Below are positions 7,866-32,975 of a stretch of 64,000 bases of DNA, piece by piece. The stretch is from contig JBOHWH010000135.1 of assembly GCA_050736695.1 (NCBI GenBank), positions 28,504 through 92,503 on the forward strand. The letters are read 5' to 3'. Every line of letters starts with the position of its first letter. The stretch's first letter is position 1. The notes beneath the pieces are model-generated. The model was not told the DNA's origin, ran no database searches, and was given only the letters and a program-made list of their open reading frames with translations. Source of the DNA: Candidatus Binataceae bacterium. GTDB lineage: Bacteria; Desulfobacterota; Binatia; Binatales; Binataceae. The position numbers were made by a program, and so were the translations under genes.

Positions 7866-7890
7866 CGCCTCCGGATTTTCCCGGCACCCG

Positions 7891-10096: not shown

Positions 10097-10109
10097 CCTG
10101 CTTCGCGAT

Positions 10110-10187
10110 GGACGCATAGCTCAGCTCGGTTAGAGCACATGCCTCACATGCATGGGGTCGCAGGTTCAAATCCTGCTGCGTCCACCA
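10110..10187 (+). tRNA. tRNA-Val (anticodon CAC), CCA encoded
   Basis: Cloverleaf: acceptor GGACGCA/TGCGTCC, D-arm GCTC..GAGC, anticodon stem CATGC/GCATG with loop CTCACAT, T-arm GCAGG-TTCAAAT-CCTGC, then discriminator A and CCA. Confidence 0.85.
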
Positions 10188-10745
10188 TCCAGTCCCTCAG
10201 TTTACGAACATCTCGGAGAATCGCAGGAAATCCGCGCATGTGCGCGCGATTTGCGATCGCGCAGGGACCCGGAGAACGACCCTTTCGGCGTGATTCGCCA
10301 GAATCGGCCGATTTCTCTCTCGGCGCGAATTGCCTAGGTCCCACCCCACGCCTGGCGAGACGACTTCCCATGTCGGCGCGACAGAGCGATGTGTGCTGAG
10401 GACGGTCGGTCGCGCCGAAGCGCCGGCCCGAGAAGGAGAACCACATGAACGCGAATACCAAACCGGTCGCAGCCACGCCGACGCCAGCGCTGCCCTCGAA
10501 AAACAGGAAGGACGCACCTCGGCCATCGCGGTCATCGCGTGCGGCGGCCAAAGCGCAGAAGTTGGTCTGTCGATATTGCGGCAGCGACGATCTCGCGCCG
10601 TCGTTCAAGAAGCGACGCGACGCCCGCTGCCGCGCCTGCTTCAAGAAGCGCTACGGTTCTGCTACGCGCAAGAAGGACACGCGCACTCGGAACACGAAGA
10701 CCGCGAAGTAGTTTCGCGGCGCAACCAAAGTAATTGGGGCCGGGT
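10178..10745 (+). repeat. Left copy of an imperfect direct repeat (tRNA-Val 3' end plus small-gene region) marking the left border of a genomic island
   Basis: Sequence from the tRNA 3' strand (ctgcgtccacca...) through the 88-aa ORF recurs at 32606-32975. The second copy differs by base substitutions, a roughly 170-bp segment absent from it, and frame-disrupting indels. Confidence 0.7.
10445..10711 (+). CDS. Small basic zinc-ribbon protein (C4: CRYCG...CRAC), hypothetical
   Basis: GAAGGAGAA RBS lies 4 nt before the ATG. 88 aa, Lys/Arg-rich with CxxC...CxxC. A degraded second copy lies at 32690-32950. Confidence 0.5.
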   Translation: MNANTKPVAATPTPALPSKNRKDAPRPSRSSRAAAKAQKLVCRYCGSDDLAPSFKKRRDARCRACFKKRYGSATRKKDTRTRNTKTAK

Positions 10746-10825
10746 CCTCGAAGGGGCCCGGCCTCGTCTCATTCGTTGAAGAGAGTCACAACTTGCCCGC
10801 GTGCAAGAGATCCTTCAGACGTGAA

Positions 10826-12508
10826 CTAGCGGATGCCGAGCGCCTGTTCCTGCGCGCTCCAGAGCAGAGGGAGATCGACCCGGCGGGAGAGACCGATCAC
10901 GGTGAGGTCCGGCGGCTGGCGACCTTCGGCTATCGCCTCGACGATTCGCGGCGACAGAAATGCGAGCCGAAGCAATCGATGGACGGAGCGGCGATCGAGC
11001 TGTTCCCGCCGCGCCAGCTCTGAGATCGACTGAACGCGGCCCGAGATCAGATCCAGAGACCAGCGGCGGGCGCGGGCGACCGCGTTGAGCAGGGGCAGAT
11101 CGACCCGGGCGGGGGTAGCGTCGCCCTCAAGCACCATGCGCATCTCGACTCCGCGCCGCTTCATCTGCATCGGAACGAATTTGGTCAGAGCGATGTGGCG
11201 CCGCGACGTGTCGCTCTCTCCTTCGGCCGGTGGGATCGGCAGCTTGAGCGAGACTCGGATGCCGTCGCGGCCGAGCTCGGTCCGCTCAATCAAGTCAGCA
11301 AGCGCCGCTGAAGTTTCGGTCTCGGCGCGCAGGCGCTCAATCCAAGCTTGAGCCGACTTCAGAACCGACGGCAGCCGATGCGCGTCGATGCCGGACTCCT
11401 CTGCTTTCTGCGCAATGGCATCACGGTCGGCGAGAAACTGTCGGGCAGCAGCGGAGACGGAGCGCTCAATCTCGAGCGCGGATAATCGCCATCTAGGCTC
11501 CCCACTCTCAGGCCCATTTAGGACTCGTTTCCTGGATACGTAATAGCGATAGCGGTGTTGACCTTTCGCTGCTCCCTGAACGTACAGAGGATCGCCCGTT
11601 TCATCGAACAACTTGCCGGCTAGCGGACTTCGCGGCGCCTCGGTCTTGCGGCCCTCGCCTCGGCGGACCGCACCGGTGCGCAGCCGTTCCTGGACCCGTT
11701 CCCAGAGCTCGCGGCTCAAGATGGCCTCGTGTTGCCCTGGGTAGCGTTCTTTCTTGTGTCGGATCTCCCCGAGGTAGATCGGGTTGGAGAGCAGACAGTA
11801 GAGCGCTCCGCGTGAGAAGGGCTTTCCGCCTCTTTGCCTGCCCTTCTTCGATACCTTAACCGCGGAGACAATCCCGCGCCGATCGAGGTCTCGCTTCAGA
11901 AGCCGGACGCTGCCGAGTTCCAGATAGCGCTCGAAGATCTGGCTGACCATCTTGGCTTCGCCGGGGTTGACGACGAGCTTGCGCGCGTGGACGTCGTAAC
12001 CCATTGCTAGCCCTCCACCCACCCAGATCCCCCTGCGCTTGGAGGCGGCCACCTTGTCCCGGATCCGCTCGCCGATCACTTCACGCTCGAACTGGGCGAA
12101 CGACAGCAGCACGTTCAGAGTGAGCCGCCCCATCGAGGTGGTGGTGTTGAACTGCTGGGTGACGGAGACGAACGACACGCCCTGCGCGTCGAACAACTCG
12201 ACCATCTTGGCGAAGTCCGCGAGCGAGCGGGTCAACCGGTCGACTTTGTACACGACCACCACATCGACCAAACCTTCGCGGATGCTCGCGAGCAGTTGCT
12301 GCAACGCCGGCCGCTCCATCGAGCCGCCCGAGAAGCCGCCATCATCATAGGCGGTCTTGACGAGCTTCCAGCCCTCGCCCGCTTGGCTCTTGATGAACGC
12401 CTCGCACGCCTCGCGCTGGGCGTGCAGCGAGTTGAAGTCCTGCTCCAGACCCTCTTCCGAGGACTTGCGGGTGTAAATCGCGCAACGCCTGATAGGAGTA
12501 TCAGCCAT
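10826..12508 (-). CDS. Large serine recombinase (resolvase N-domain + recombinase domain + zinc-ribbon/coiled-coil C-terminus)
   Basis: Resolvase catalytic N-terminus (CAIYTRKSSEEG...VVVYKVDRLTRS) plus a long C-terminal recombinase domain. AGGAGG RBS lies 6 nt before the ATG at 12508; the ORF-track upstream extension is spurious. Confidence 0.9.
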   Translation of the reverse strand: MADTPIRRCAIYTRKSSEEGLEQDFNSLHAQREACEAFIKSQAGEGWKLVKTAYDDGGFSGGSMERPALQQLLASIREGLVDVVVVYKVDRLTRSLADFAKMVELFDAQGVSFVSVTQQFNTTTSMGRLTLNVLLSFAQFEREVIGERIRDKVAASKRRGIWVGGGLAMGYDVHARKLVVNPGEAKMVSQIFERYLELGSVRLLKRDLDRRGIVSAVKVSKKGRQRGGKPFSRGALYCLLSNPIYLGEIRHKKERYPGQHEAILSRELWERVQERLRTGAVRRGEGRKTEAPRSPLAGKLFDETGDPLYVQGAAKGQHRYRYYVSRKRVLNGPESGEPRWRLSALEIERSVSAAARQFLADRDAIAQKAEESGIDAHRLPSVLKSAQAWIERLRAETETSAALADLIERTELGRDGIRVSLKLPIPPAEGESDTSRRHIALTKFVPMQMKRRGVEMRMVLEGDATPARVDLPLLNAVARARRWSLDLISGRVQSISELARREQLDRRSVHRLLRLAFLSPRIVEAIAEGRQPPDLTVIGLSRRVDLPLLWSAQEQALGIR

Positions 12509-13001
12509 TGGCCACCTCCTTGGCCCGGCGCTTGAGGCCGAAGAACAGTGGTCCGGACCAGTGGGTGCCGGTGATGACACGGGCGACTTCCGACAGCGAC
12601 TTGTAGCGCCGCCCACGATAGACGACGTCGTGATCGAGCACCGTGACCCGGTGATGGACGCCGCGCCATTCCCGGATCAGAACGGTTCCCGCGCCAACCC
12701 GTCGATTCGGAATACGCTCCGAAACGGCCTCTGCAAGGCCATTGCATACGCGATCGAGGATCCGCTGCGTGGATGGCCTGACGCCGCCGAGCGCTCTCTC
12801 TTGGAGCCGATACGCGATCGCCCAAATCATGAAGGACCGTCCGAGGTACGGCGACGGATCGCCACCAAACAGCGCCTTCCATCTCTGCCGCAGCGCCTCG
12901 GGATCAAGCGCGCGAAGGCTCGCAAGCTCCGTCGCCAGATCTTCGGAACCGCCAGCGCGGCGGGGCTTCCTGTTTCGATTTCGCGAACTTTCCCGTCCCA
13001 T
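12501..13001 (-). CDS. DUF2924-family protein (serine-recombinase-associated)
   Basis: Small basic protein immediately upstream of, and overlapping, the serine recombinase; this pairing is typical of DUF2924 in integrative elements. A diverged remnant copy lies at 33665-34110. Confidence 0.6.
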   Translation of the reverse strand: MGRESSRNRNRKPRRAGGSEDLATELASLRALDPEALRQRWKALFGGDPSPYLGRSFMIWAIAYRLQERALGGVRPSTQRILDRVCNGLAEAVSERIPNRRVGAGTVLIREWRGVHHRVTVLDHDVVYRGRRYKSLSEVARVITGTHWSGPLFFGLKRRAKEVANG

Positions 13002-13437
13002 GGAGACCTCCTTTCAGACCTCCATGTGCGCTCTGTGTGCGTTGGAAATCCAGTCGCCGTTGACCGGCCTAAGTATGCGAAAGATTTGAAGAATTTGGCC
13101 CCAAGAGCCCGATCTATGGCTCAAGGCGCGGCGCATAATGCTTTCTAGCTGATAGAAAGGTCCGGAGCGCCGTGTCGCCTCCGGATTACCTGAATGCAAT
13201 GCAGGTTCACAGCCCACTCAGCAGTCACAGCGAACCAAGTATTTTCGTAATTAGCTGCGCGATGAAACCCGCAACGCTCCTGATCTACGCTACAAAGGGA
13301 ACGATCTCGAACGCGCGTGACCGGCACCCAACCATCGAGTGTGAATATAGTGGCCTGCTGACGGCGGATTTCAAATCATCTACTGGTTGCTCTTGGCAGA
13401 GAGTAGTAACCTCGTACGGCGGCGGAAAGGTGTTCCG

Positions 13438-13635
13438 ATGGACGATTTCAATATCGATCCAAAACGAGGCGTTGTATGCTCGAAGTGCGGCAAAGTGATC
13501 GCGCGCATTTGGGAAGAGAGACCTTCATGTCCACGAAAATCCTGCGGAGTCAGCTCTTGTCCGTATTGCGATAATGGGAAGCCTCCAAGATGCCCGCTTG
13601 GCGATAGTGATTGCGGTTTGGGGCTCCCAGTCTGA
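13438..13635 (+). CDS. Hypothetical Cys-rich small protein
   Basis: 66 codons from the internal ATG, with ten Cys (CSKCGK...CPRKSCGVSSCPYCDNGKPPRCPLGDSDCG), in a lower-GC patch of the island. Confidence 0.25.
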   Translation: MDDFNIDPKRGVVCSKCGKVIARIWEERPSCPRKSCGVSSCPYCDNGKPPRCPLGDSDCGLGLPV

Positions 13636-14180
13636 ACTCTCTTTTCGGCGCCGCGACCGGCGCGCTCCGCGGCATTCAGGAATTTTAGCTATTCTCGGGA
13701 TGGGAGCGTTACCCGATGGCGAAGAATCAGCCGAGAGACCATCGTACGTGCGCCAAGGATAGACGGTATAACGCGACCCCTCCACCCAAAGCATCGGCAA
13801 CGGCGTTCAGATCACCGGAGCGAAGCGGATGACAGCTTTAGGGTTCCCGATCAAACTCACGGGACGCGCGTTGGGCCACCGACAATGACGCAATCGGGGT
13901 CGGTAAGGTTCAGGCGGTTCTCCGATCACCTGGCGAGCTCGGAATGGACGCACACTATGGGGTCGACAGATGGTCAGGAAAGCTGACACTGCGCGGCGGC
14001 TTCTTACGTGGCGATCTGGTCTGCGGCGGCGAGGCGGCATCGTTGAACGGAAGAATCTTTCAGAGTCCATTCGAGCCAAACCGATGGTTCTTTTCCGGCG
14101 AATGGAAGGAAGGCGGAACGGTCTACTTCTTTTGGGCCGACCTCGAAGCGAAGCCACAATAGGTCTTTGGGACTCTGCGC

Positions 14181-14807
14181 ATGACAGTCGAGGAATACTT
14201 AGACATCCGAACAAAAGTAATGGCGCACCCCAACGGCCGCGCCGAGATTGAATGGCTGCGAAAGGCCGGCCGTCCGAAAGATTCCAACGATCTCGCGTTG
14301 CGGTTGGCGTCAGTGGTGACCTCGTCGGGTTTCGAATACCGTCCCGAGCTTTGGGAGCGCATCGGGTCGGCGTTGCGCCGCGGTCGACGAATCTTCCCTG
14401 ATGTGTTTGGAAACAAGAATAAGGCGGCGGCAATCGAAAAGATTTGGCGCGACCGACGTGCACTGTTCACGACGTTCAAAGCGATCCATACCCCGCAAGA
14501 GGCGCTCAAGTGGTGCGAGGGAATCCCGTATGTTCAGGGTCCGGTGTTGAGGTACCAAGCCGTACGCGACCTGGGTGTCGCCGATGTGGCGAAGCCAGAT
14601 CGGCATTTGGAGCGCATCGCTGAAAGGGCCGGTGAGTTCCTGAATGAACTAAGCAAACGGCTGGCGCGTTCAACGGGCGACAGCGTAGGAATGGTGGATA
14701 TGGTCCTCTGGAACGGCGCGCGCTTGCGGATAATTCCGGGCATCAGCCGTCGGCGTGGCCGTGTCGCAGATTGTCAGCCGCGCGCTCGCGCGTCCCGACG
14801 CCGATGA
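14181..14807 (+). CDS. Hypothetical protein (possible HhH-type DNA-binding segment)
   Basis: 208-aa ORF. The segment GIPYVQGPVLRYQAVRDLGVADVAKPDRHLERI loosely resembles a helix-hairpin-helix / HhH-GPD motif. No firm assignment. Confidence 0.3.
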   Translation: MTVEEYLDIRTKVMAHPNGRAEIEWLRKAGRPKDSNDLALRLASVVTSSGFEYRPELWERIGSALRRGRRIFPDVFGNKNKAAAIEKIWRDRRALFTTFKAIHTPQEALKWCEGIPYVQGPVLRYQAVRDLGVADVAKPDRHLERIAERAGEFLNELSKRLARSTGDSVGMVDMVLWNGARLRIIPGISRRRGRVADCQPRARASRRR

Positions 14808-15429
14808 AAAGATCCTACATAGCCGTGCGGCGGATAATTCTGATTCAAGTCACGTTTTTCTTAGGACAACCGAACGACTTTCCCTTTCTCCGCGGCGAGC
14901 GATTTGCGCCTGGGTCGCGGACGTTTCTCGGCCGATGAAGTGTCGCCCGGAGAACCGGTGACTGTCCATCTACCTGCCGAAAATCCGCGCTTAATCTGAT
15001 CCAGCGGAATATGAAGTTTATCAAGTACTCTTCAACGGATCACTCCCTCGTGCTTCAGTCCCAGACTCATTTGGGCGATTCTTTTTCGTATTCGGCGTAA
15101 TTTCCGTGCTTTAGACCTCACATGAAATTGGGACAGCGTTCGAGAGGCGTTTGCGTGCATCGCAACTTCGGTTGTGGGACAGAAAGGGCTTGGCGCGGAC
15201 GAGAAGTCCGACGGCGCCCAGCTACTATGATGCTGTGCGCTAGGCGCATTGCTAGACGAAGGAGTTTACCGGGACCGCCTCAAGACTCTCACCTGCACCC
15301 GCGATGTCTCGGGGATATGACCAAGAGTCAGGAATGGGGACGCAAATTGGTGTAGGATTCGTCTTCGCGGCCCAGTGCGCTCGCGGAGTGCTTCGGTGCC
15401 GGTTCGATGGCAGCCAGGTTGATGGCGGA

Positions 15430-17295
15430 ATGATGTCCCGACGCGACACGGAACCTGAACGCAAAACTCGCCTAATGCGAGTGGATCCGAAGCTTCACAT
15501 TCTGGGCTGGAAAATGGTCGCATTCAACCCCGATCTTGATTTATCCGCATGCACGGCACATGCGATTACTGAATACCCGACTGACGAAGGCCCGGCCGAT
15601 TACGCTTTGGCTCTCAACGGACGTATCGTCGGAATTATCGAGGCGAAAAAGCTCTCCCTCGGGCCCCAGAATGTCCTGACGCAGGCGGAGCGCTATGCCC
15701 GCAGCCTGCCGCCCAGCGAGTTAAATTTCAACGGCCTGCGCGCGCCGTTCCTGTACTCCACGAATGGCGAGGTGATCTGGTTTCATGACGTGCGCTCGCC
15801 TGCGAGTCGCTCGCGCCGCATCGCCAACTTTCACACGCCGGTCGCTCTGAGCGAGATGCTCGGGCGCGACTTCGAGGCCGAGTGCTATCGGCTGAGGGCG
15901 CTACCTAACATCCACAGCCTTCTGCGCCCCTATCAGCGAGAGGCCAACGCAGCGATCGAGCGAGGGATCGCGGAGCGGAAGCGCGTGATGCTCGTCGCGA
16001 TGGCGACCGGCACCGGCAAGACCTTTACGATGGTGAATCAGGTCTACCGGCTGATGAAATCGGGCGTCGGTCGCCGGATACTCTTCCTCGTCGATCGCCG
16101 GGCGCTGGCGGCGCAGGCGGTTCGCGAGTTTGCCTCGTTCGAGGCGGCGCCGGGCCTAAAGTTCGACAAGATTTACGAGGTTTACAGCCAGCGCTTCCAG
16201 AAAGACGATCTCGATCCCAGCGAGAAGTTCGATCCCAAGGTCATGCCCAACGCCTACCTCACGGATCCGAAGCCGGGAGCGGCGTTCGTTTACGTGAGCA
16301 CTATCCAGCGGATGGCGCGGTATCTGTTTCCCGACCGCAGCTTTGGGGAACGCGACGACGAGGACGAAAACGACCTGCCCGAGCCTCTGCCCATTCCAAT
16401 TCACGCCTTCGACCTGATCATCGCCGACGAATGCCACCGCGGCTACACCGCCGCCGAGCAGTCTCTGTGGCGCGACACGCTCGACCACTTCGATGCGATC
16501 AAAATCGGGCTTACCGCCACGCCCGCGCATCACACCACCGCCTACTTTCGCGACATCATTTACCGCTACGATTACCGCCGCGCCGTGGCCGAAGGCTTCC
16601 TGGTCGATTATGACGCCATCGCGATCAAGTCCGGCGTGCTGGTCAAGGGCATCTTCCTTAAAGAAGGCGATCGCGTGCAGACGGTTGATCCACAATCCGG
16701 CTTGACCGGCATGGACCAGCTCGAAGATCAGCGCCAATTCGACTCGACCGACGTCGAGCGCAAGATCACCGTTCCCGACACCAACAAAAAAATCGTCGAG
16801 GAACTGAAGAAGTACGCGCTGGCGCACGAGCAGAAGTTCGGGCGTTTCCCCAAAACGCTCATCTTTGCGGTCAACGACAAGCCGCACGTTTCACACGCCG
16901 ACCAGCTCGTTGATCTCTGCCGCGACATCTTCGCTCGAGGCGAAGCCTTCGTTGCCAAAATCACGGGGATCGTGGATCGCCCGTTGCAACGGATCCGCGA
17001 GTTCCGCAACCGTCCCGAGCCCGCGATCGTAGTGTCGGTGGACCTAATGTCCACCGGCGTGGACATTCCCAATCTTGAATTCATCGTGTTCGCGCGCCCC
17101 GTCAAGTCGCGCATCCTGTGGGAGCAGATGCTCGGCCGCGGTACCCGCCTCGGCAGCCTGACGCCGCCCAAGTCGCACTTCACGGTCTTCGATTGTTTCG
17201 ATGGCACGCTGTTCAATTACTTCAAGAACGCATCCGCCTTCACGGAAGGCGATTATGCCGTACTTGACTCCGACCCTCGCATGAGTTATATTTGA
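15430..17295 (+). CDS. hsdR: Type I restriction enzyme R subunit, N-terminal portion (HSDR_N PD-(D/E)xK nuclease + SF2 helicase motifs I-VI); gene apparently interrupted after motif VI
   Basis: The nuclease motif (ADYALALNGRIVGIIEAKK), Walker A (MATGTGKT), DECH box (LIIADECHRG) and motif VI (QMLGRGTRL) are all present. The ORF ends at 17295, immediately before the IS1595 transposase gene. The expected C-terminal domain is encoded separately at 20046-20972. Confidence 0.8.
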   Translation: MMSRRDTEPERKTRLMRVDPKLHILGWKMVAFNPDLDLSACTAHAITEYPTDEGPADYALALNGRIVGIIEAKKLSLGPQNVLTQAERYARSLPPSELNFNGLRAPFLYSTNGEVIWFHDVRSPASRSRRIANFHTPVALSEMLGRDFEAECYRLRALPNIHSLLRPYQREANAAIERGIAERKRVMLVAMATGTGKTFTMVNQVYRLMKSGVGRRILFLVDRRALAAQAVREFASFEAAPGLKFDKIYEVYSQRFQKDDLDPSEKFDPKVMPNAYLTDPKPGAAFVYVSTIQRMARYLFPDRSFGERDDEDENDLPEPLPIPIHAFDLIIADECHRGYTAAEQSLWRDTLDHFDAIKIGLTATPAHHTTAYFRDIIYRYDYRRAVAEGFLVDYDAIAIKSGVLVKGIFLKEGDRVQTVDPQSGLTGMDQLEDQRQFDSTDVERKITVPDTNKKIVEELKKYALAHEQKFGRFPKTLIFAVNDKPHVSHADQLVDLCRDIFARGEAFVAKITGIVDRPLQRIREFRNRPEPAIVVSVDLMSTGVDIPNLEFIVFARPVKSRILWEQMLGRGTRLGSLTPPKSHFTVFDCFDGTLFNYFKNASAFTEGDYAVLDSDPRMSYI

Positions 17296-17298
17296 TTC

Positions 17299-18225
17299 AT
17301 GCGAGAGAAGAAGCCCAAAGAGCCATTGGTTCCGCAACTTACCCTGAGTCAGTTCGCGGGCATGTTTCCCGATGAAGCCGCCTGCAAAGCCTATCTGGTC
17401 GCACGCCGCTGGCCGCAAGGCGTCCGTTGCCCGCGCTGCCAGAATGAGAAGGTGTACGAACTGAAAACCCGCCCCTTCCACTGGGTTTGCAAGAAGTGCG
17501 GCAAAACGCCTTATCGCTTCTCGGTCACGGTCGGAACCATCTTTGAGAATACCAATTACAAGTTGCTTGTTTGGTTCAAGGTTCTGCACCTGATGGTGAC
17601 CAGCAAGAAGGGAATCAGCGCGCTTCAAATCCATCGCATGATCGGTTCCGGTTCGTACCGTACCGCATGGTTCATGTGCCATCGGCTCCGCGCCGGTATG
17701 GCCGATCCCGAGTTTCGCCAGTTGATGGGCATCGTCGAAGTGGACGAAACCTATATCGGCGGCAAGGCTCAGAACATGCACCTCAACAAGCGCAAGGCGC
17801 TCGCGCTGACCGGAACCAAAGGTAAGGCGACCGTCATCGGCGCGATCTCCCGCAAGGGCAACGTGGTCTGCAAGGTGATCGAGAATACCGATCAGTTCAC
17901 GCTCGATAGGTTCGTTCGTAAAGCGGTCAATCAAGAGCGCGTCGATATGATCATGTCGGATGAGCACGGCGGTTATCGCCTGCTCGGCACTGGACCGCAG
18001 GCAATGCCGCACGGCGTCGTGCGCCACAGCGCGGGCGAATACGTTCACGGCATTGTGCATACGAATACGATCGAAGGATTCTGGAGCCTGCTCAAGCGGG
18101 GAATCATGGGCAGCTATCACAAAGTCAGCAAGAAATATCTGCCGCTCTACATCAACGAGTTTGTGTTCCGGTACAACAATCGCAAGAATCCGGACATCTT
18201 CGGGAGCGCGATAGCAGGATGCTGA
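17299..18225 (+). CDS. IS1595-family (ISXO2-like) transposase
   Basis: N-terminal transposase zinc-ribbon (CPRCQNEK...CKKCGK) followed by an ISXO2-like DDE domain (VDETYIGG...MSDEHGGY...HTNTIEGFWSLLKRG). Confidence 0.85.
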   Translation: MREKKPKEPLVPQLTLSQFAGMFPDEAACKAYLVARRWPQGVRCPRCQNEKVYELKTRPFHWVCKKCGKTPYRFSVTVGTIFENTNYKLLVWFKVLHLMVTSKKGISALQIHRMIGSGSYRTAWFMCHRLRAGMADPEFRQLMGIVEVDETYIGGKAQNMHLNKRKALALTGTKGKATVIGAISRKGNVVCKVIENTDQFTLDRFVRKAVNQERVDMIMSDEHGGYRLLGTGPQAMPHGVVRHSAGEYVHGIVHTNTIEGFWSLLKRGIMGSYHKVSKKYLPLYINEFVFRYNNRKNPDIFGSAIAGC

Positions 18226-18418
18226 AGCGACCAGACTGGCAGGCGCTTCAGCGGTCGCCAGCCAGTAGACCAACGCAACTCGACTTGTTTCCGAGAGTGC
18301 GGCGCTATGTCTAAACGAGAACCTCATGGTGTTTACGAGAACAAATAAACTAGGCGTACCAGAGCGACAATCCCGACAATGATTCCAAGCCATTGAAGCC
18401 AAGAAAGGTCACACACAA

Positions 18419-18739: not shown

Positions 18740-18743
18740 CGCG

Positions 18744-18887: not shown

Positions 18888-18891
18888 GGGT

Positions 18892-19986: not shown

Positions 19987-20045
19987 ATAGATCTCCCGCC
20001 CTTGAGATAGACGTTCCCCGTCCATCCCTCAAGGCGAGGGGACTA

Positions 20046-22530: not shown

Positions 22531-22626
22531 ACGATTCTCCTTGCGCAAATGAGTCCGCTCCGTCACCGGTCGAGCCGAGTAAACCATCGCAGCAAATGAC
22601 GCAGATCGAGCGTGGCCACTCGCCGC

Positions 22627-24781: not shown

Positions 24782-26133
24782 TCACCCACCAATTCGGGCT
24801 TGAGGCCGAGCGCCGCCATGCGTTCCAGCGCAACCGCGACGAACGGCGGGGATTTTTCAATCGCGTAACAGCGCCGACCGGTCTGCTCGGCCGCGACCAA
24901 CTGCGATCCGCTGCCAGAGAACGGCTCGTAACAGATGTCGCCGCGCTCGGTGTGCATCTCCATGGGAAGCGCGAACAACCGGCAAGGCTTACAGGTTGGA
25001 TGTGCGTCGGTCTCGACTTCCGAACTTGGGACTTCCCAGACCGTGCTGGGAAACTCGCCCGCGATTTTGCCGAGATCTGAGCGTAGCGTCTTGGGTTTCT
25101 CGCCTCTGATCCAACCGAACAAACATGGTTCGTGCTGCCAGAGGTAGGTCGAGTAGGTCAACACCGGGCGACTCTTGACCCAAATGATCTGCTGGTGAAC
25201 GAAGGCGCCGAACTCGCCCCAGATCGATTCGAGCATCATCTGGCGGCGCGATGCGTGCCAGCAATACCACGCGGCGTTGCGGACAATCGCATGCTCGATC
25301 GCCATCCCGATGAACCCGCGGTAGAGTTCGACTCCTGCCTCCTCGGCGTTCTTAACGTCCGCGCTTTTCGCTTCCACGTACACCCCCGACCAATTCTTGT
25401 CGCGGTTTGCAGCGCCTCGATTTCCCCAGCTCTGTGGATGGGAACCGCCGGTGTACCCGACCGCGTAGGGCGGGTCGGTCGCGAACAGGACCGCGCGCTC
25501 GTCGCCCATCAACCGCGCGACGTCCTCGGGTTTGGTTGCGTCACCGCAGAGCAGGCGATGCGCGCCCACTCGCCAGAGTTGGTTCGCGCGCGTGCCCCAT
25601 TTTTTCTGGAGTTCGGCTGCTTGCTCGATTTGTGCCGGCGGTTCGGCCTGCGGATGGATCAGGCTCCACAGCCGGTCGCCTGCGGTACGCCGAAGGAGAT
25701 CTTCAACCGCGGGGCTATCGGTTCTCACGGTCTGGAGAAGCGTTCCGATTCGCTCGGAGTCGGATTCGGCTAGGGAAGCGAGCGGATCGAGGGTAAGCAA
25801 CAGTTTGTCCGCCTCCGCTTCATCGAGGTCCAGAATGAGCACCGGAACTTCGAAGTCCGGCGTGGTTTCGGCGCGCAAGTGACCGTCAATCAACATGAGC
25901 CTTCCGTTTCCCAGTTCGCGGGCAAGCAGCGCGTCGGCGTACCCGATCTCGGCGAGAAGGTCACGCAGGGCATTCGCCTGAGCCTTTGGATGGCGCCGCC
26001 AGTTTTTCGGATTGGAAAGCAGGTCCCGAGCCGGGACTCGACGCAGCTCTCTTATGCGATCCCGAATCGCGATGGCGCCGTTGGAATTTGTTGATGTTGC
26101 GTTAGCCATTCGACATCTCGGTTCAATTCTCAT
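24778..26133 (-). CDS. ParB-like nuclease domain fused to an N-4/N-6 DNA methyltransferase (phage-type orphan MTase)
   Basis: N-terminal ParB/sulfiredoxin-like motif (LIDGHLRAE) and a C-terminal MTase with the DPPY motif (FATDPPYAVGY) plus a SAM-binding region (YEPFSGSGSQLVAAEQTGRRCYAIE). Confidence 0.85.
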   Translation of the reverse strand: MRIEPRCRMANATSTNSNGAIAIRDRIRELRRVPARDLLSNPKNWRRHPKAQANALRDLLAEIGYADALLARELGNGRLMLIDGHLRAETTPDFEVPVLILDLDEAEADKLLLTLDPLASLAESDSERIGTLLQTVRTDSPAVEDLLRRTAGDRLWSLIHPQAEPPAQIEQAAELQKKWGTRANQLWRVGAHRLLCGDATKPEDVARLMGDERAVLFATDPPYAVGYTGGSHPQSWGNRGAANRDKNWSGVYVEAKSADVKNAEEAGVELYRGFIGMAIEHAIVRNAAWYCWHASRRQMMLESIWGEFGAFVHQQIIWVKSRPVLTYSTYLWQHEPCLFGWIRGEKPKTLRSDLGKIAGEFPSTVWEVPSSEVETDAHPTCKPCRLFALPMEMHTERGDICYEPFSGSGSQLVAAEQTGRRCYAIEKSPPFVAVALERMAALGLKPELVGE

Positions 26134-26355
26134 TTTGGAGAAAAACCGAGACTGGAATCAAAGTGACAAATTGCAAGTGCCAGGGGGGATTTCGTCACCC
26201 GCATCTCGGCCTTGCCTGCTGTCGCTTTTCGCAGGCCAGGGCAGCGCTCCAGCCGTCCGACAGCATATGAGCCAATGTGGAAATTAGGCGCCACTAGAAC
26301 GCTCAGCGTCGGATAGCGCCCGACACGCAGCCCTGCCGTGTCACGCTAGCCTGAG

Positions 26356-27435
26356 CTAGGGCCGCTCGTTGCGGGACCGGCCCAGGGTACCTTTGCGTTT
26401 TTGAGAACGGAGAATGGCGCGACGGCGACTGCTGGCAGATATGTCCCTATTTTCGACGGCTTGCTCGCGCTTCCGCATCCGGACGTAGCTATCGAGCGAA
26501 AGTGCGCGGCCGATCGCCACTTTAAATAGCTCGTTCAAGACCTCATCAATTTTCGGCTGCGAAAGCGCCCGATATCCGTCTTTGAGTAGAACCCCGGGCC
26601 ACAGGAAAACCCACATGTTGCGCCGGAACGTCTGGCCAAGACTGTCCCGCGGACGTCCCTGTGGTCTGTTCGAGGCCAAATGCTGCAATTTATCCTGCAG
26701 AGTGTCGAGCGCGACTGAGACATGATCGGGAAGCCAGGTTGGCTCTCGCAGTTCCCGCCTGAGATTCAGTAGCAGCGAGAGCGCGCGTCCTGCGCCAGCG
26801 CCTTTCAGCCCTTTACGCGCCTCGGCGCAGCGGAAGTTCCAGCAAGCCTCTTCGAGGTTCTCCAGTCGCTTCGTCTGGTATCTACGCAGGGGGCTGAGCA
26901 ATTGATAAGCCTGCGTGCGCTGGAACTGCGCGCGGAAGGCAGCCTTTGCCTCCGCCCGCTCTTCTTGCATGGATGGGAGGTCGCAAAATGTCTCCAAAGC
27001 CCGACCTCTCTGCAAACTGGAATCGTCCGAAGATTTCATCGCAATGATAATGGTAGCACGTCCCCATGCGTTTCCCTGACATCTGGGCAGACACTTTTTC
27101 CACAAATCAATAGGGTCCAGGAGATTTGGAGTAGTGGTTTGCCCAGGGTATTTTGTACCAGCTGTCAAATTGAAGCTGGAACTGGAGGAACCCCGCAGTG
27201 GCAAGGCGACAGTACACGGCGGAAGAGATCGTATTAGCGGTTCGCATATGTCGGCATCTGAATCGCAGCGCGCCTGCCGGAGCAGATCGGGGTTAGATTC
27301 CGTTGGATTAGAGAATGACAAATGCTGTCCGATTGAAACGAACAACTCATAAATTGACTTGGTCGCTGCTGGCAGTCTGGCTGGCATGGGAAGGTTACTT
27401 GCTTGTCGCGGGCTTGTGGCCCTTTTTGGGGCCAC
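26356..27435 (-). CDS. Hypothetical protein (start uncertain)
   Basis: Long ORF. The C-terminal two-thirds has protein-like composition; the upstream third lies in a low-GC stretch and may be non-coding. Confidence 0.3.
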   Translation of the reverse strand: MAPKRATSPRQASNLPMPARLPAATKSIYELFVSIGQHLSFSNPTESNPDLLRQARCDSDADICEPLIRSLPPCTVALPLRGSSSSSFNLTAGTKYPGQTTTPNLLDPIDLWKKCLPRCQGNAWGRATIIIAMKSSDDSSLQRGRALETFCDLPSMQEERAEAKAAFRAQFQRTQAYQLLSPLRRYQTKRLENLEEACWNFRCAEARKGLKGAGAGRALSLLLNLRRELREPTWLPDHVSVALDTLQDKLQHLASNRPQGRPRDSLGQTFRRNMWVFLWPGVLLKDGYRALSQPKIDEVLNELFKVAIGRALSLDSYVRMRKREQAVENRDISASSRRRAILRSQKRKGTLGRSRNERP

Positions 27436-27795
27436 AAACGGATACTTTTAACGGTGTGGTTTACCACGGCCGCGCGGATCGGATGGAAACTGGATTAATC
27501 GCAACGGTCTCTGGGTTTCCGTCGGGCCTCTTTATCCCTGCCTTAGAGTTGATCCTGTTGCAAAAAAGCCTGGTATAGGACTTGTTGGTAGGCAAGACAC
27601 TTGATCGAGTTTATCTTCAGCTGGTTGATTATTTGTGCTGTGACTTCGCGCAATGGTACGTTACGCTGCGCGGGCTGGACTTCTTGATCAGAAGGCTGAG
27701 GATACGACTGAGACAGAAATCCGTTACCCCGACGTGAGAGCCCGCAGGGAACGTTCGGCGTCGAGATGCGGAACTCCTCCGTCGGCGGGAAGGCA

Positions 27796-30651
27796 ATGAA
27801 ATCATCGAGGGTTCGTTCAACCAATCGCGTGCGCGTGTTGTTGGGGGTAGCGGTTCTCCTGGCAGCGATCGCGGGCTACCGGCAGGTTGTAGGGGCGCAA
27901 TCACAACCCCGCGCTTTGATCACCGAGCCGGTCAGCGATACCAAGCTGGTCACGCTCGCGGGTAATACGCGTCCGGAGGCGAACTCACGCTACGATCGCG
28001 GGCCGGTCACTGACAGCTTCCGGATGGAGCATATGTTCCTCCAGTTGCGACGCTCTCCCGGAGCGGAGCACGCCCTTCAGCAGTACATGGGACAACAGGC
28101 CGACCCCAAGTCACCAAACTATCACCATTGGTTGACGGCGCAGGAAATCGGTCAGCGGTACGGTCTGGCCCCGGAAGATATGGTCACGATCACCGGGTGG
28201 CTCCAGTCCCACGGCTTCACTGTCAATGTCGTTTATCCCAACGGCATGGTGATCGACTTCTCGGGTACGGCAGGCGAGGTGCGCAAGGCTTTCCACACCG
28301 AGATTCATCGCCTTGATGTGGACGGCAAGCTACATATCGCCAACATGAGCGATCCGCAGATTCCGGCCGCGCTCGTGCCGGCAGTGGTCGGCATCGTGTC
28401 GCTGAACGACTTCCGGCCGCATCCGATGCGCACGAAAAGCTCGAACTTCTCGCGGGGCGGTACTTGCGGCCCATTGGGCGCTCCGTGTGAGAAGCTCGTA
28501 CCTGCCGACGTCGATACCATCTACAACTTGAATCCGCTCTTTTCCGGCAGTATCACCGGGCAAGGCGAGAGAGTCGTAGTGGTCGAAGATAGCGATGTCT
28601 TCAATCCTGGCAACGCGATTTGTATGGGGAATGGCACTCCCACCGGCTGTTGTTCGGGTTTCGGAACAGGATCCTGCGGCACCGGAGACTGGGACACCTT
28701 CCGCACTACTTTCGGCCTTGCCAGCGACTTCCCGAACGGACGTTTCGTGCAGTTCCAACCGCCACCGCCCAGCGGCTCGAACAATTGTAGCGATCCGGGC
28801 GCCGTCACAGACGTTGATGTCGAGGCGATCCTCGATGCGGAATGGGCCTGCGCGTCGGCGCCCAACGCGACTATCCTTATGGGCTCGTGCGCGGACGTCA
28901 CTACCGGATCTTTTGGGACGACATTGGCTTCGGGAGTTTTTGTCGCACTGCAGAACATTCTAAACGGCGCGCTGAGCCCGAAGCCGGATGTGGTGAGCGT
29001 CAGTTACGGCGAATCGGAGGCAGTTAACGGCGCGTCGTCCAACGCCGCCATCGACTCGCTGTATCAGACGGGCGTGGCGGGAGGCATTTCAATTTTCGTT
29101 GCTGCGGGCGATGCCGGTTCGGATTCTAATGACGAGGATCGAGGGCCGCCTCCATCCGCGGCAACCTTCGGAATCAGCGTGAGCGGATTTGCGTCCAGCC
29201 CGAACGACGTGGCGGTGGGTGGCACCGATTTCGGTGACTTCTTAACCAACACCAGCTCCACATACTGGAATGCGTCGAATGGGGCCAACGATGGCTCGGC
29301 CCAGTCCTATGTGCCGGAAATCCCGTGGAACGACTCGTGCGCCAGCGACCTGTTGTCCGGATTCATGGGCACGGTCTCAACCTTTGGCCCAAGTGGCTTG
29401 TGCGAACTTGCTTTGTTCGGAAGCGGGATTTGCACGAGTAACCGCGAGCCATACGGGTGTTGTGATGGGCCGGGGAGCGGCATTTGTCCACAACCCGATT
29501 TTTCGCTGCAAGTCGCCGGCGGCAGCGGCGGCCCAAGCAGCTGTGCGAGCGGAGCGCCGTCCACGAGCGGCGTGGTAAGCGGGACCTGTAAAGGATGGAC
29601 CAAGCCTGGTTATCAATCGGTTTTTGGCAACCCGAGCGACGGCGTTCGCGATGTTCCCGACGTCGCGCTGTTCGCCGCAGACGGATTGTGGGGGCATTGC
29701 TACGTGTTTTGCAATTCCAACCCTGCGGACATGAATTCATGCACTGGCGACGTCAGCACCTGGCCTTGCGCGGGCGGGACCTCGTTCGCCTCGCCGATAA
29801 TGGCCGGCATCCAAGCTCTGGCCGATCAGAAGACCGGCAGCGATCAAGGCAACCCGAATACCACCTACTATTCGCTCGCGCGCACCGAGTATGGCGCGAG
29901 TGGCAACGCCAGCTGCAAGTCGAGCCTGGGTAACGGAGTTTCAAGTTCGTGCATCTTCTATGACATAACCCAGGGTGACAACGACCAACCATGCGTTGTA
30001 GGCGACCCGAACTGTTTCGCCGACGGAGTACCTACCGGGGATGTCGGCGTGCTGTCCACGTCAAACTCGTCGTTCCAGAACGCATTTGGGGCGAACGCCG
30101 GATGGGACTTCGATACCGGCATCGGGACCGTCAATGCCACCAATCTCGTGATGGCATTTGCCGGCAGCGTGACGGTAACGGTAACGGCAACCGCGACTGC
30201 AACGTCAACCAGCGGCACGCCGACAACAACCGCAACGTCAACTACGCCTAGCACCGCGACTCCGTCGGCAACAATGACTGCTACCGCTACCGCGACGAAG
30301 ACCGCAACGCCGACGGCTACTGCGACGCCGGGCGGCGGGCGAGTCTCGGTGAACCGGAAGAAGCTCGTGCTCAACGCGTCGCCGATGGCGACGGCGTCCT
30401 CAAGTATCACTATTGGCAACAGGGGGACGGGCCCGCTGACGGCTAACGTAAGCGCCCCGGAACACGACCCCCCATTTACGGAGGTTGGTGGAGCAAGGGG
30501 GATTGTGATCGGTCCGGGCTTAAACCACGAAGTGATAATCGTGTACGCGCCGACGAAGAAAGGATCGAGGAGCGATCAGATCTTGATCACGAGCGATGAT
30601 CCCACGCATAAGAAAGTAATCAAGGTGAAAATCAAGGGTAGGGCGAAATAG
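27796..30651 (+). CDS. Secreted sedolisin-like serine peptidase (S53: pro-kumamolisin activation domain + peptidase) with a Cys-rich insert, a Thr/Ala/Pro-rich linker and a C-terminal beta-sandwich domain
   Basis: GGGAAGG RBS before the ATG at 27796. Signal peptide, then an S53 pro-domain (...QYMGQQADPKSPNYHHWLT...). The catalytic serine motif is GGTSFASPIMAG. The linker (TVTVTATATATSTSGTPTTT...) is followed by a roughly 100-aa terminal domain. Confidence 0.8.
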   Translation: MKSSRVRSTNRVRVLLGVAVLLAAIAGYRQVVGAQSQPRALITEPVSDTKLVTLAGNTRPEANSRYDRGPVTDSFRMEHMFLQLRRSPGAEHALQQYMGQQADPKSPNYHHWLTAQEIGQRYGLAPEDMVTITGWLQSHGFTVNVVYPNGMVIDFSGTAGEVRKAFHTEIHRLDVDGKLHIANMSDPQIPAALVPAVVGIVSLNDFRPHPMRTKSSNFSRGGTCGPLGAPCEKLVPADVDTIYNLNPLFSGSITGQGERVVVVEDSDVFNPGNAICMGNGTPTGCCSGFGTGSCGTGDWDTFRTTFGLASDFPNGRFVQFQPPPPSGSNNCSDPGAVTDVDVEAILDAEWACASAPNATILMGSCADVTTGSFGTTLASGVFVALQNILNGALSPKPDVVSVSYGESEAVNGASSNAAIDSLYQTGVAGGISIFVAAGDAGSDSNDEDRGPPPSAATFGISVSGFASSPNDVAVGGTDFGDFLTNTSSTYWNASNGANDGSAQSYVPEIPWNDSCASDLLSGFMGTVSTFGPSGLCELALFGSGICTSNREPYGCCDGPGSGICPQPDFSLQVAGGSGGPSSCASGAPSTSGVVSGTCKGWTKPGYQSVFGNPSDGVRDVPDVALFAADGLWGHCYVFCNSNPADMNSCTGDVSTWPCAGGTSFASPIMAGIQALADQKTGSDQGNPNTTYYSLARTEYGASGNASCKSSLGNGVSSSCIFYDITQGDNDQPCVVGDPNCFADGVPTGDVGVLSTSNSSFQNAFGANAGWDFDTGIGTVNATNLVMAFAGSVTVTVTATATATSTSGTPTTTATSTTPSTATPSATMTATATATKTATPTATATPGGGRVSVNRKKLVLNASPMATASSSITIGNRGTGPLTANVSAPEHDPPFTEVGGARGIVIGPGLNHEVIIVYAPTKKGSRSDQILITSDDPTHKKVIKVKIKGRAK

Positions 30652-30771
30652 GCGGACGGGCCGGTTTGAATACGCGCGCAACGAAAGGACGCACGGTGCG
30701 AGCCGATGAGCCCGAAAATGCACCTAAGCCGATCATCGCCATCGATGGCGATGATCGCCGCTCGATCCGGT

Positions 30772-32361
30772 CTATTTGTTCTTCGGCGCTTTCCCCGTTC
30801 CCGACAGCTTCACCGACTGCTGCTCAGCATTGTCGATGATCATCAGGGTGGCCGTAGACGATACGGCGGCGGTCGGCGCGAACGTAATTCCGATCGCGCA
30901 CTCCGAGCCTGGGTATAGCTCCGCCGGAAAACTGCACCTATTATCCACGCCGAACGGACTGCCCCCTCCGCTGAGTCCTTCGATCAGCACAGTGATACCG
31001 GGCTTCTTCTTGCTCCCCTTGGGATTGCGCATGATGACACGCTTGGGCCCCTTAAGACTCCCTACCTCCACGCTGCCGAAATTCAGCGATGTCGGTCTGA
31101 TCCTGAGCTCAACCGGTACCGGTGTTGGCGTCGGTGTTGGCGTCGGTGGAATTCCAGGGCCTATTGCGTAAAGGCGATTTGGCCCATACGGATAGACGTT
31201 CATGTAGATCGTTCCGTCGGCGCCGATCGCCGGCGCTCCTTCTATAAGGGAAATACCGCCGGCCGCGGTGGCGAACTTCCACTTAATGGAGCCGTCGGGG
31301 TTGATCGCGTAGATATTCCCGTCATTGGCGCCAACATAGATAGCGCCATCGGCTCCAATCGCCGGCGACGAGATTACCGCCGCGTCCTCAGTAAAAACTT
31401 GCCACCTGAAACTGCCGTTGGGGTTTAACCCCCACACGCTGCGTCCGTCTCCAAAATAGATTGCGCCATCGGCCCCAATAGCTGGCGAGGATAGTACCCA
31501 GTAATTCGGTGACTGGAACCGCCACTTTAACGAACCGTCGGGATTGATGGCGAACAGGTAGGCGATACTATTCGGGTAACCCCCAGTAAATTCGGAACCG
31601 ACATAGATAGTACCATCCGCCCCTACTGCCGGAGAAGACTCCACGTCGCCAGGCGTCGTGAAGAACCACTTCAACGAGCCGTCGGGGTTTACTGCATAGA
31701 CGTTGTAGTCAGCGGAACCAAAGTAGATTGTTCCGTCGGTAGCGATCGCCGGAGAGGACATCTCATTGGTCCCATAATTTCCTTCCGCCAGCACCCACTT
31801 CGCGGTGCCGTCGGGGTTGATCGCATACAGTTTGCCGTCATCGCAGTACACGTAGATGGTTCCATCGGCTCCGATTGCGGGCGAGGATTCTAATTCAAAG
31901 CCGGTTTGGAAAATCCACTTCAATGTACCATCCGGATTTACTGCGTATAGGTAACCGGTTCGGATATCGCCGGCTGAAGGAGCGTAGATCGTTCCATCGG
32001 CTCCGATTGCGGGCGAAGGGTACAGTGGCCAGGCGGCTGCGAACGTCCACTTCACCGTCCCGTCCTGATTAAATGCGTAGAGATTATTGTCTCCAGGCGT
32101 TGAATAGATGGTTCCATCCACGCCAAGGGTGGGCGACGATAGCGGCGCAAAAATAGTGCCCCCTGGGTAAACAAACAACCATTTCTGGACGCCGTTGTTG
32201 GCGCTGGTGTCGAATGAGCTTTGGCCAGTGTGTGCAGAGTCGTGCCGGAAGACCGGCCAAGGCGAAGCCGCCAGTTGTGCACGCGGCGCGCTCGTCAACG
32301 AGACTATGAGCAAAACGCCAGCGGCCAAACTCAATAAAACGATCGGACCAATTCGGCCCAC
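30772..32361 (-). CDS. Secreted PQQ-type beta-propeller repeat protein with TPTPTP linker and C-terminal beta-sandwich domain
   Basis: About nine repeats of ...SSPAIGADGTIY...NPDGS.KW.F... form a PQQ-like/BamB-like propeller. A signal peptide is present. The linker is PTPTPTPTPVP, and the C-terminal domain resembles that of the adjacent S53 protease. Confidence 0.75.
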   Translation of the reverse strand: MGRIGPIVLLSLAAGVLLIVSLTSAPRAQLAASPWPVFRHDSAHTGQSSFDTSANNGVQKWLFVYPGGTIFAPLSSPTLGVDGTIYSTPGDNNLYAFNQDGTVKWTFAAAWPLYPSPAIGADGTIYAPSAGDIRTGYLYAVNPDGTLKWIFQTGFELESSPAIGADGTIYVYCDDGKLYAINPDGTAKWVLAEGNYGTNEMSSPAIATDGTIYFGSADYNVYAVNPDGSLKWFFTTPGDVESSPAVGADGTIYVGSEFTGGYPNSIAYLFAINPDGSLKWRFQSPNYWVLSSPAIGADGAIYFGDGRSVWGLNPNGSFRWQVFTEDAAVISSPAIGADGAIYVGANDGNIYAINPDGSIKWKFATAAGGISLIEGAPAIGADGTIYMNVYPYGPNRLYAIGPGIPPTPTPTPTPVPVELRIRPTSLNFGSVEVGSLKGPKRVIMRNPKGSKKKPGITVLIEGLSGGGSPFGVDNRCSFPAELYPGSECAIGITFAPTAAVSSTATLMIIDNAEQQSVKLSGTGKAPKNK

Positions 32362-32524
32362 GTCCTTGTAACGTTTCGTTGGATTTCCCCCCGCTTACTC
32401 GGTCCCCGCTCGCAGACGCTATTTTGGTACTCATGGAGAGACGGTGCAACCTTTTTCCCATCCAGGTAGTAGGGTCTGAGCATTACTAGAACGTCGTTTG
32501 GCTTGCCTATCCGGAAAGCGGCGC

Positions 32525-32586
32525 GTCAACCGCCAGGGCTGTCAACCGCCGCTTGTCAACCGCCCCATAGTGTCAACCGGTTGACA
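32525..32586 (+). promoter_or_regulatory. Iteron array: three direct GTCAACCGCC repeats (14-16 bp phasing) plus the palindrome TGTCAACCGGTTGACA, adjacent to the right island junction
   Basis: GTCAACCGCC occurs at 32525, 32541 and 32555. The perfect 16-bp palindrome lies at 32571-32586. The array is 20 bp upstream of the tRNA-3'-end-like repeat (32606). Confidence 0.4.
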
Positions 32587-32605
32587 GAGAGCACCTGCTA
32601 TCGGA

Positions 32606-32975
32606 CTGCGTCATCCACCATTCAGTCTCTTAGTATTCGCACATCTCGGAGAGCCGCGCGAAATCCGCGCTGGCCCGAGAAGGAGAACCACGTGAACGCG
32701 AATACTAAACCCGTCGCTGCTACGCCGCCGCCGGCGCTGCCTTCGAAAAACAGGAAGGACGCGCCTCGGCCATCGCGGTCATCGCGTGCAGGCGGCCCAA
32801 GCGGAGAATTTGGTTTGTCGATACTGCGGCAGCGAAGATCTCGCGCCGTCGTTCAAGAAGCGACGCCCGATGCCGCGCCTGCTTCAAGAACCGCTACGGT
32901 TCGGCTCCGCGCAAGAAGGCCACGCGCACTCGGAAGCCGAAGGCTGCGAAGTAGTTCGCGGCGCAACCAATGTCA
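32606..32975 (+). repeat. Right copy of the direct repeat (tRNA-Val 3'-end-like sequence plus pseudogenised copy of the small zinc-ribbon gene), marking the right border of the island
   Basis: ctgcgtcatccacca...acatctcggaga...gaaggagaaccacgtgaacgcgaatac... is collinear with 10178-10745, apart from a roughly 170-bp segment that it lacks and several indels. Confidence 0.7.
32690..32950 (+). pseudogene. Degraded paralog of the small zinc-ribbon protein gene (frame-disrupting 1-bp and 5-bp indels)
   Basis: Same N-terminus (MNANTKPVAATPPPALPSKNRKDAPRPSRSSRA), but the CxxC region appears only in a shifted frame (the 32786 ORF: ...LVCRYCGSEDLAPSFKKRR...). Confidence 0.55.

Follow-up and report, generated by a model that had tools for sequence, protein, structure and literature searches.

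A probable head-to-tail array of two serine-recombinase elements at a tRNA-Val gene of an uncultured Binataceae bacterium

The elements of the staphylococcal cassette chromosome (SCC) type, such as SCCmec of staphylococci, are inserted by Ccr, a large serine recombinase (LSR), at the very 3' end of a conserved housekeeping gene that stays functional, and they stack head to tail as composite islands in which the older units decay. A similar arrangement is found in the DNA analyzed here, a stretch of 64,000 nucleotides (nt) from a Candidatus Binataceae bacterium (assembly GCA_050736695.1, contig JBOHWH010000135.1, positions 28,504 to 92,503), which as a whole is called the window in the following. 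We consider it likely that two members of one integrative-element family lie head to tail at the tRNA-Val gene of this window. Element 1 (about 10184-32616, 22.4 kb) appears complete, since its head and tail are both conserved and its three module genes intact, and it is probably still mobile. Element 2 would be a remnant of about 1.5 kb (32617 to about 34100), with a truncated leader, a frameshifted small open reading frame (smORF), no recombinase and a DUF2924 pseudogene. The long direct repeats that flank the island would accordingly be the homologous left arms of two elements, and not a duplication made by integration.

The likeness to SCC has limits, as the family in the window targets several tRNA genes while SCC targets rlmH, its LSR is paired with a DUF2924 protein and a zinc-ribbon ORF, and its right arm carries iterons; the comparison with ccr was made through shared Pfam domains only. 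The targeting of tRNA and tmRNA genes is, in the Islander database paper (PMC4383910), described as "usually" the work of tyrosine integrases. Islands of that type have in common with the present locus the tRNA 3' end as a hotspot, a distal tRNA-like fragment and tandem arrays, but the recombinase is a serine one here, and the distal tRNA-like piece is the element's own arm, whereas theirs is a displaced tRNA fragment. In Prochlorococcus, 910 of 937 tycheposons and cryptic elements use tyrosine recombinases cutting inside the tRNA, and 27 of the 937 tycheposon-type elements encode an LSR (bioRxiv 10.1101/2020.12.28.424599). Like tycheposons, the elements described here are small, bear cargo or resemble satellites, reside at tRNA genes and end in partial tRNA copies, with tandem junctions and, in some, a terminase. 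The hallmark replication genes belong to tycheposons, however, the host phylum and the module genes differ, and Pfam and PHROG scans of the window ORFs found no tyrosine recombinase, primase or polymerase; we do not class the element as a tycheposon, the tycheposon features shared being the tRNA site and the tandem habit only. A further parallel is offered by Wolbachia phage WO and Acidithiobacillus phage AcaML1, in which DUF2924 lies immediately upstream of the LSR and next to the end of the genome or prophage. Unlike the present elements these are full phages with structural genes, the identity between the DUF2924 proteins is only 31-40%, and the small zinc-ribbon ORF is neither reported nor seen in them. 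In the literature searched, DUF2924 was mentioned only in three Wolbachia papers and no function was assigned to it, and no description of a family combining LSR, DUF2924 and zinc-ribbon genes was found, an absence that is no proof of newness.

The integration target, tRNA-Val(CAC), occupies 10110-10187 on the plus strand (ARAGORN; Rfam tRNA, 70.6 bits) and is the single tRNA gene that ARAGORN and Rfam detect in the window. Relatives were found through the gene for a FAD-binding protein to the left of this tRNA, which led to four metagenome-assembled genomes of uncultured Binataceae or "delta proteobacterium" (L001-L004; L-numbers designate contigs or loci from other assemblies compared with the window), with FAD-binding proteins 75-78% identical in amino acids to that of the window. 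All four align with the window from 248 to 10187 or 10193 at 79-84% nucleotide identity, and the similarity stops at the tRNA 3' end. Neither the proteins of the interval nor those of the genes to its right occur within 10 kb downstream of tRNA-Val in any of the four, which also differ among themselves in this region. Because synteny ends at the last bases of tRNA-Val, the interval that follows is, as judged by these alignments, accessory DNA, and not ancestral core retained by the relatives. An empty site was not found among the four, each of which has different DNA after tRNA-Val. In L001 (2137-9868) this DNA is a different, 7.6-kb island, which has a tyrosine integrase beside the tRNA and in which 45 nt of the tRNA 3' end recur as a direct repeat; taken with the LSR island of the window, it shows that the tRNA-Val(CAC) site varies in this lineage and that no fewer than two unrelated integration systems have used it.

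An earlier inspection of the letters alone, referred to here as the sequence-only reading, had described long imperfect direct repeats flanking an island, at 10178-10745 and 32606-32975. The two copies do align significantly (repeat finding, MAFFT, blastn), but the repeat is discontinuous: 10173-10237 corresponds to 32606-32670 at 80% identity, and 10420-10744 to 32667-32986 at 89% identity over 326 nt (blastn, E = 6e-120), while the right copy is without the 182 nt equivalent to 10238-10419. The repeat consists of 65 nt and 320 nt, and an additional homologous piece, a DUF2924 pseudogene, lies beyond the right-hand limit first proposed, at 33767-34059. Atypical GC and tetranucleotide profiles extend over the stretch between about 10-11 kb and 33-34 kb, with drops in GC to 0.53-0.54 at 18-20 kb and at 27-28 kb, in agreement with the patches of lowered GC noticed in that reading. 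The structure of the locus is not an assembly artefact, because contigs of other assemblies span each junction. The left one is contained in L176 (GCA_975255925.1), 99.97% identical to the window over 20.5 kb, the right one in L170 of the same assembly (99.96%), and two Logan contigs (L174, L177) are 99.99-100% identical to the window, both junctions being present in these two other public sources (GCA_975255925.1 and a Logan run). Exact-protein look-ups for other strain states returned the same configuration only, or contigs breaking inside the repeat, that for the protein P0001 had no match, and a search of the window for additional att-like sites or right arms gave none.

The left repeat copy is the head of a conserved module of 2.95 kb composed of a leader, the smORF, the LSR gene and the DUF2924 gene. 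Other loci are homologous to the window, with 72-82% identity, between 10154 and about 13100, where the similarity ends (at 13095-13109 in L083-L087). The order smORF, LSR, DUF2924 is adjacent in L083-L088 and many other loci, and in all long contigs examined the smORF is followed by a convergent 560-aa LSR gene and a 166-aa DUF2924 gene. The module occurs mainly in soil and peat metagenomes and starts at an identical register after real tRNA genes, namely 10 distinct tRNA-Ala(CGC) loci, tRNA-Pro(GGG), tRNA-Lys(CTT) and tRNA-Val(CAC), with the junction pattern ...acceptor-A-CCA-NN-CAGTC.... Because the unit follows different tRNAs in different flanks, the module is best regarded as mobile, and the smORF is borne by the element and not a native neighbor of tRNA-Val.

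The LSR gene (10826-12508, minus strand) encodes a 560-aa protein with the Pfam domains Resolvase (PF00239, 1.7e-40) and Recombinase (PF07508, 8.1e-16), an N-terminal ...AIYTRKSSEEG motif and a match to the integrase family phrog_95, and its relatives in the Protein Data Bank (PDB) include TP901-1 integrase, YokA of the SPbeta prophage and PhiC31 integrase. A long C-terminal extension is present within the 560 aa, in which the zinc-ribbon and coiled-coil domains were not individually detected. The gene lies 640 nt from the tRNA junction, at one end of an insertion absent from the four relatives, and by its domains it is a bona fide large serine recombinase. Its ATG start at 12508 overlaps the stop codon of the DUF2924 gene (12501-13001, minus strand, 166 aa), to which it is translationally coupled; in its model the DUF2924 protein has a helical N-domain followed by a small C-domain of beta-alpha type, and it weakly resembles SAP/LEM DNA-binding modules. 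The smORF (10445-10711, plus strand), first gene of the module, encodes an 88-aa basic CxxC...CxxC zinc-ribbon protein with an invariant core, LVCRYCG...RCR.C. It has 884 homologues, nearly all from soil or peat metagenomes and the few named ones from Binataceae and Terriglobales, which amount to only 193 clusters among 1.84 billion representatives. The protein had no match in Pfam, PHROG or PDB, and its AlphaFold2 model is poor (pLDDT 60).

The leader (10188-10444, plus strand, about 257 nt), which carries GGAGAATCG and two GCGCGATTTGC motifs as well as a GGACCC...GGTCC pairing, is non-coding and yet about as conserved as coding sequence in the window and 31 other loci. An alignment of these 32 non-redundant leaders shows discrete length classes of 263, about 304 and about 330 nt. 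A structured RNA was considered and rejected, as an Rfam search of the leader returned no family and the alifold structure was weak, the sequence being too conserved for covariation; we take the leader to be putative protein-binding DNA. A search for terminator-like sites between tRNA-Val and the smORF found none, and because of this read-through expression of the smORF from the tRNA in the integrated state is possible, if speculative.

At the other end of the module, the region upstream of the DUF2924 and LSR genes (13002-13105) contains a second CCAGTC site (13050-13055), conserved upstream of DUF2924 in all modules and 50 nt upstream of the gene in the window, followed by GTTGACCGG (13059-13067), which is an inverted copy of the iteron core. 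In L085 (12523-12861) and L087 (12499-12665 and 18694-18860) the right end of the module is duplicated, 0.2 kb and 6.2 kb apart respectively, with one duplicate stopping exactly at the second CCAGTC, and in L138 (10396-12620) the LSR-DUF2924 block is inverted with a breakpoint near this site, which may be a secondary recombination site or an operator. The iterons of the right arm, the leader GCGCGATTTGC motifs and the second CCAGTC are candidate binding sites.

The tail of element 1 is a right arm (32390-32616, plus strand) in which a motif search located GTCAACCGCC iterons at 32525, 32541 and 32555, followed by the palindrome GTCAACCGGTTGAC (32572-32585) and by a core made of GACTG (32604-32608), CGTCAT and CC (32615-32616). 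The architecture of iterons and core is common to L081, L097, L121, L130 and L131, while L084 shares the core only, without iterons, and the tRNA-like 15-mer at 32606-32620 belongs to this conserved arm. Across the family, right arms fall into two classes. Class 1 contains a degenerate 3' half of tRNA-Ala; class 2, to which the arm of the window belongs, combines four to eight GTCAACC(G/A)CC iterons with the GTCAACCGGTTGAC palindrome and with a core, GGACTGCGTCATCCAC(CA), similar to the acceptor end of tRNA-Val. The GACTG and CAGTC of class-2 cores are 5-bp inverted repeats on either side of a 14-bp stretch centred on CC.

Right arms of this kind frequently stand where a tRNA would be expected. 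By our own count, what precedes the left arm is the right arm of another element or a pseudo-tRNA, not a tRNA, in about 23 of 36 distinct cases, and in many arrays the LSR and DUF2924 genes of one unit lie just 340-720 nt upstream of the smORF of the next. Loci with a right arm before a left arm are head-to-tail arrays or, in principle, circles. Some array units are without any cargo, which implies a minimal element of about 3.2 kb. The array in L126 joins units with LSR identities of 57% and 79%, and L084 (4739-12627) contains at least three stacked units, in the order class-2 arm with a leader fragment, cargo with a Mutator-family transposase, and class-1 arm (pseudo-tRNA-Ala) with a complete module, which suggests that arrays can mix both arm classes. 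In L081 (9511-10756; CAWDFL010000001.1, the same contig as L002), a class-2 arm precedes an intact smORF and a 114-aa C-terminal stump of the LSR. This unit lies about 105 kb from tRNA-Val, on the opposite side of the tRNA and in inverted orientation, a placement that an inversion between att-like sites could explain.

The right repeat copy of the window begins with a left arm (32617-32691, plus strand; ACCATT, then CAGTC at 32623-32627) from which 182 nt of the leader have been deleted. The smORF pseudogene that follows (32692-32954, plus strand) begins with GTG, contains one additional A (at 32790) and is 5 nt short after 32859, which bears out the substitutions and frame-disrupting indels announced for this copy; its identity is 89% with the left copy and 84% with L090. 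About 800 nt past the broken smORF, collinear and on the expected strand, lies the DUF2924 pseudogene (33767-34059, minus strand), which covers residues ~61-157 and has an in-frame stop and a frameshift; it was recovered by tblastn (46% identity over 82 aa, E = 5e-25) and matched by tblastx as well. Because this pseudogene follows it, the right repeat is most simply read as the head of a second, decayed element. Internal deletions sparing the smORF and the ends of the module are also seen in L152, L160, L081 and L082. The left smORF arm is 89.0% identical to the right copy, 88.5% to L090, 87.3% to L084 and 87.0% to L081, its identity to elements in other genomes being 86-88.5% overall; the DUF2924 pseudogene is 68-75% identical to any sampled copy and 71% to the window's own gene, and the intact gene of the window is 81-83% identical to its nearest relatives. 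Because the identity between the left and right copies is no higher than that between the left copy and elements of other genomes, the two represent separate lineages and not a recent duplication.

The place expected for the LSR of element 2 is occupied by an AhpD-like gene of the CMD family (33123-33701, plus strand; Pfam CMD). The sequence-only reading had taken it for the native flank, a view that we abandon, since the gene lies inside the element 2 remnant and the island complex reaches about 34.1 kb. Its single in-frame TGA (33360-33362) aligns exactly with the second Cys of the catalytic CxxC in PDB homologues (GCPF-TGA-VD vs GCAYCVN), and a 6-bp hairpin begins 11 nt downstream of the TGA. 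The gene could encode a CxxU selenoprotein instead of being a pseudogene; tested as a selenocysteine insertion sequence, the hairpin was no more stable than shuffled sequence (z = -0.03). Composition is back to host-like values at about 34 kb in the tetranucleotide profile, from which the end of the array is placed near 34.06-34.16 kb.

These data can be combined in a model of how the array may have formed. Members of the family would consist of the tRNA-proximal 2.95-kb module, optional cargo and a right arm ending in a core that resembles a tRNA 3' end, and the LSR would recombine the attachment site of the circular element (attP, in the order right arm, core and left arm) with the very 3' end of the tRNA gene. 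Element 1 would have entered a tRNA-Val site already held by the older element 2 and pushed the latter rightward. In the left junction of the window (attL, 10173-10196, plus strand) the tRNA CC at 10182-10183 is followed by ACCA, TC and CAGTC (10190-10194), which the element would supply. Crossover would take place in the acceptor-stem/CCA segment, probably at CC 10182-10183 / 32615-32616, that is, at tRNA positions 71-72, and the junction of the circle would join about 32616 to about 10184, giving right arm, CC and then ACCATCCAGTC. Such a 2-bp crossover would let the element supply A73 and CCA and leave the tRNA intact. The location is suggested by one left-arm lineage that follows a genuine tRNA-Ala in L096 and a class-1 pseudo-tRNA in L084 and L091-L093: the T-stem is host-type in L096 and degenerate in the arm loci, and the post-acceptor bases are identical (CAC for CCA), a difference that points to an exchange in the acceptor 3' strand, between T-stem and CCA. 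The exact dinucleotide is inferred from these alignments. A tyrosine-integrase-style crossover inside the tRNA was considered and rejected, as the T-stem of attL is host-type and the post-acceptor bases are element-type. The two junctions of the window share just TCCACCAT and the CAGTC register, consistent with the earlier remark that a serine recombinase duplicates only a short core, and the long similarity around them would be homology between two elements. The sequence-only reading had offered as alternatives that the element carried its own tRNA-3'/small-gene segment or that elements accreted in tandem at the site; both now appear true together, the leader and smORF being part of the conserved left arm and the 15-mer part of the right arm, while the right copy is followed by a DUF2924 pseudogene.

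Several observations weigh against an array formed in this way. The ends of the elements are drawn from conservation alone, and no empty site, excised circle or attP was observed. The attL of canonical LSRs is not a substrate for attP, and a second insertion needs tolerance of a P'-type half-site. The rearrangements around the second CCAGTC (L085, L087, L138) are unexplained by the simple model, and an apparently functional AhpD-like gene in the place of the recombinase needs a replacement event, with no parallel in the other loci. The right boundary of the array, finally, is not fixed by synteny, as the orthologues of the CoA-transferase (83-88%) lie in unrelated neighborhoods and none is found on the contigs of the relatives.

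The second insertion could also be explained by a route that keeps the two-element array and dispenses with the LSR, if element 1 entered by RecA-dependent recombination between left arms. With about 320 nt at 89% identity, the shared arm has sufficient length for homologous recombination, one crossover would yield exactly such a tandem structure, and attL is a poor partner for attP in integrases of the phiC31 and Bxb1 types. Arrays are nevertheless very common in the family and join divergent arms (57% vs 79% LSR identity in L126), which speaks for site-specific insertion; the register at the core is conserved in both junctions, and LSR elements of the SCC type are known to stack at one site. 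Because arrays are frequent and join divergent units, insertion by the LSR appears more likely than homologous recombination, to which we give a small though real share of the probability. Much less likely still is a single element with a captured host flank, in which the leader and smORF would be ancestral and their native copy would have been displaced rightward by integration. Host-like metabolic genes do follow the right copy and composition is host-like near 34 kb, as this explanation would have it, but the smORF is at tRNA-Val in none of the four related genomes, the leader and smORF are found elsewhere after tRNA-Ala, -Pro or -Lys or after right arms, nearly always with LSR and DUF2924 genes or their remnants, and a DUF2924 pseudogene follows the right copy. 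That the second copy is a local segmental duplication or an assembly artefact is scarcely credible, for although mis-assembly or replication slippage can make repeats of such size, the copies differ by 11% and three indels and are as distant from each other as from elements of other genomes, independent assemblies span each junction, and a conserved element terminus stands directly left of the right copy.

Between module and right arm, element 1 of the array carries cargo at 13106-32389. The gene contents listed by the sequence-only reading (LSR and DUF2924, decayed restriction-modification, an IS1595 transposase, terminase and two secreted proteins) were recovered with Pfam and PHROGs, except that secretion was judged from signal peptides recognized by eye. 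The type I restriction-modification locus is dead: hsdR is in two pieces (15304-17249 and 20088-20972), hsdM is shortened to an HsdM_N stump (20969-21349), and no hsdS was found. The split in hsdR is due to a 2.84-kb element of the IS1595 family (17250-20087), a clean late insertion, because it has 23-nt inverted repeats (17250-17272 and 20065-20087) and an 11-nt direct duplication of the target site, CTTCACGGAAG. Besides the transposase, this element contains about 1.8 kb of low-GC (0.53) passenger ORFs without Pfam matches. A conserved block (21973-26133; Pfam, PHROGs) encodes an unknown ORF, the large terminase subunit TerL, a TerS-like protein and a ParB-methyltransferase, and is followed by an ORF (26356-27435), a sedolisin-type peptidase (27766-30651) and a pyrroloquinoline quinone (PQQ) beta-propeller protein (30772-32361). 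The last two have hydrophobic N-termini resembling, by eye, signal peptides. The eight to nine internal repeats of about 120-147 nt at 31204-32139, within the PQQ gene, are propeller blades and not a mobile-element feature.

The block of unknown ORF, TerL and ParB-methyltransferase is found in the same order in L130, a few kb upstream of a class-2 right arm, and the block of terminase and methyltransferase genes also in L132, L138, L143 and L180. Ten ORFs of the window, six being cargo ORFs, were compared with PHROGs; phage-type matches were limited to TerL, the TerS-like protein, the ParB-methyltransferase, the LSR and DUF2924, and none of the ten was identified as a capsid, portal or tail gene. 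Structural phage genes were likewise missing among the ORFs scanned in L130 and L138. The cargo sampled in related loci comprises nuclease-, helicase- and methylase-type genes. A prophage was rejected, as neither the scanned window ORFs nor the related loci have structural genes, and an integrative element resembling a satellite or a defence island is the more fitting description of element 1. A more distant member (LSR 62% identical) was seen in L180, an IMG/VR contig (2740-3588), where a CI-like repressor, with HTH and S24 peptidase motifs recognized by eye, is encoded between the ParB-methyltransferase and the LSR and hints at SOS-type control in some members. Beyond the array, a palindromic stretch of the window (38152-38207) matches L084 (12879-12933) in both orientations at 82-84% identity and is probably a repeated extragenic palindrome or a terminator.

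For this genome, the finding accounts for the two puzzling long repeats and delimits the presumably mobile DNA. It also brings to light an LSR family, present in uncultured Binataceae and in further bacteria of soil and peat, that inserts at the final bases of tRNA genes, a target more usual for tyrosine integrases, and forms arrays there. As a tentative scheme, which taken as a whole we regard as rather less probable than its failure in one part or another, the family would be an undescribed and compact group of LSR elements combining generic recognition of tRNA ends, accessory factors and read-through from the tRNA. A minimal unit of about 3.2 kb would comprise the leader, the zinc-ribbon gene, the LSR and DUF2924 genes and a right arm of about 0.25 kb; its LSR might read T-arm, acceptor and CCA and so use several tRNAs and also occupied sites, building arrays; the iteron arm, the zinc-ribbon protein and the DUF2924 protein might act as DNA-binding accessory or directionality factors, unlike canonical LSR systems; and read-through from the tRNA promoter might turn on the smORF only when the element is integrated. 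If the LSR truly recognises conserved features of tRNA ends, many genomes would already offer this natural serine integrase several copies of its landing site, and DUF2924, like the highly conserved orphan zinc-ribbon protein, would for the first time be placed in a functional context.

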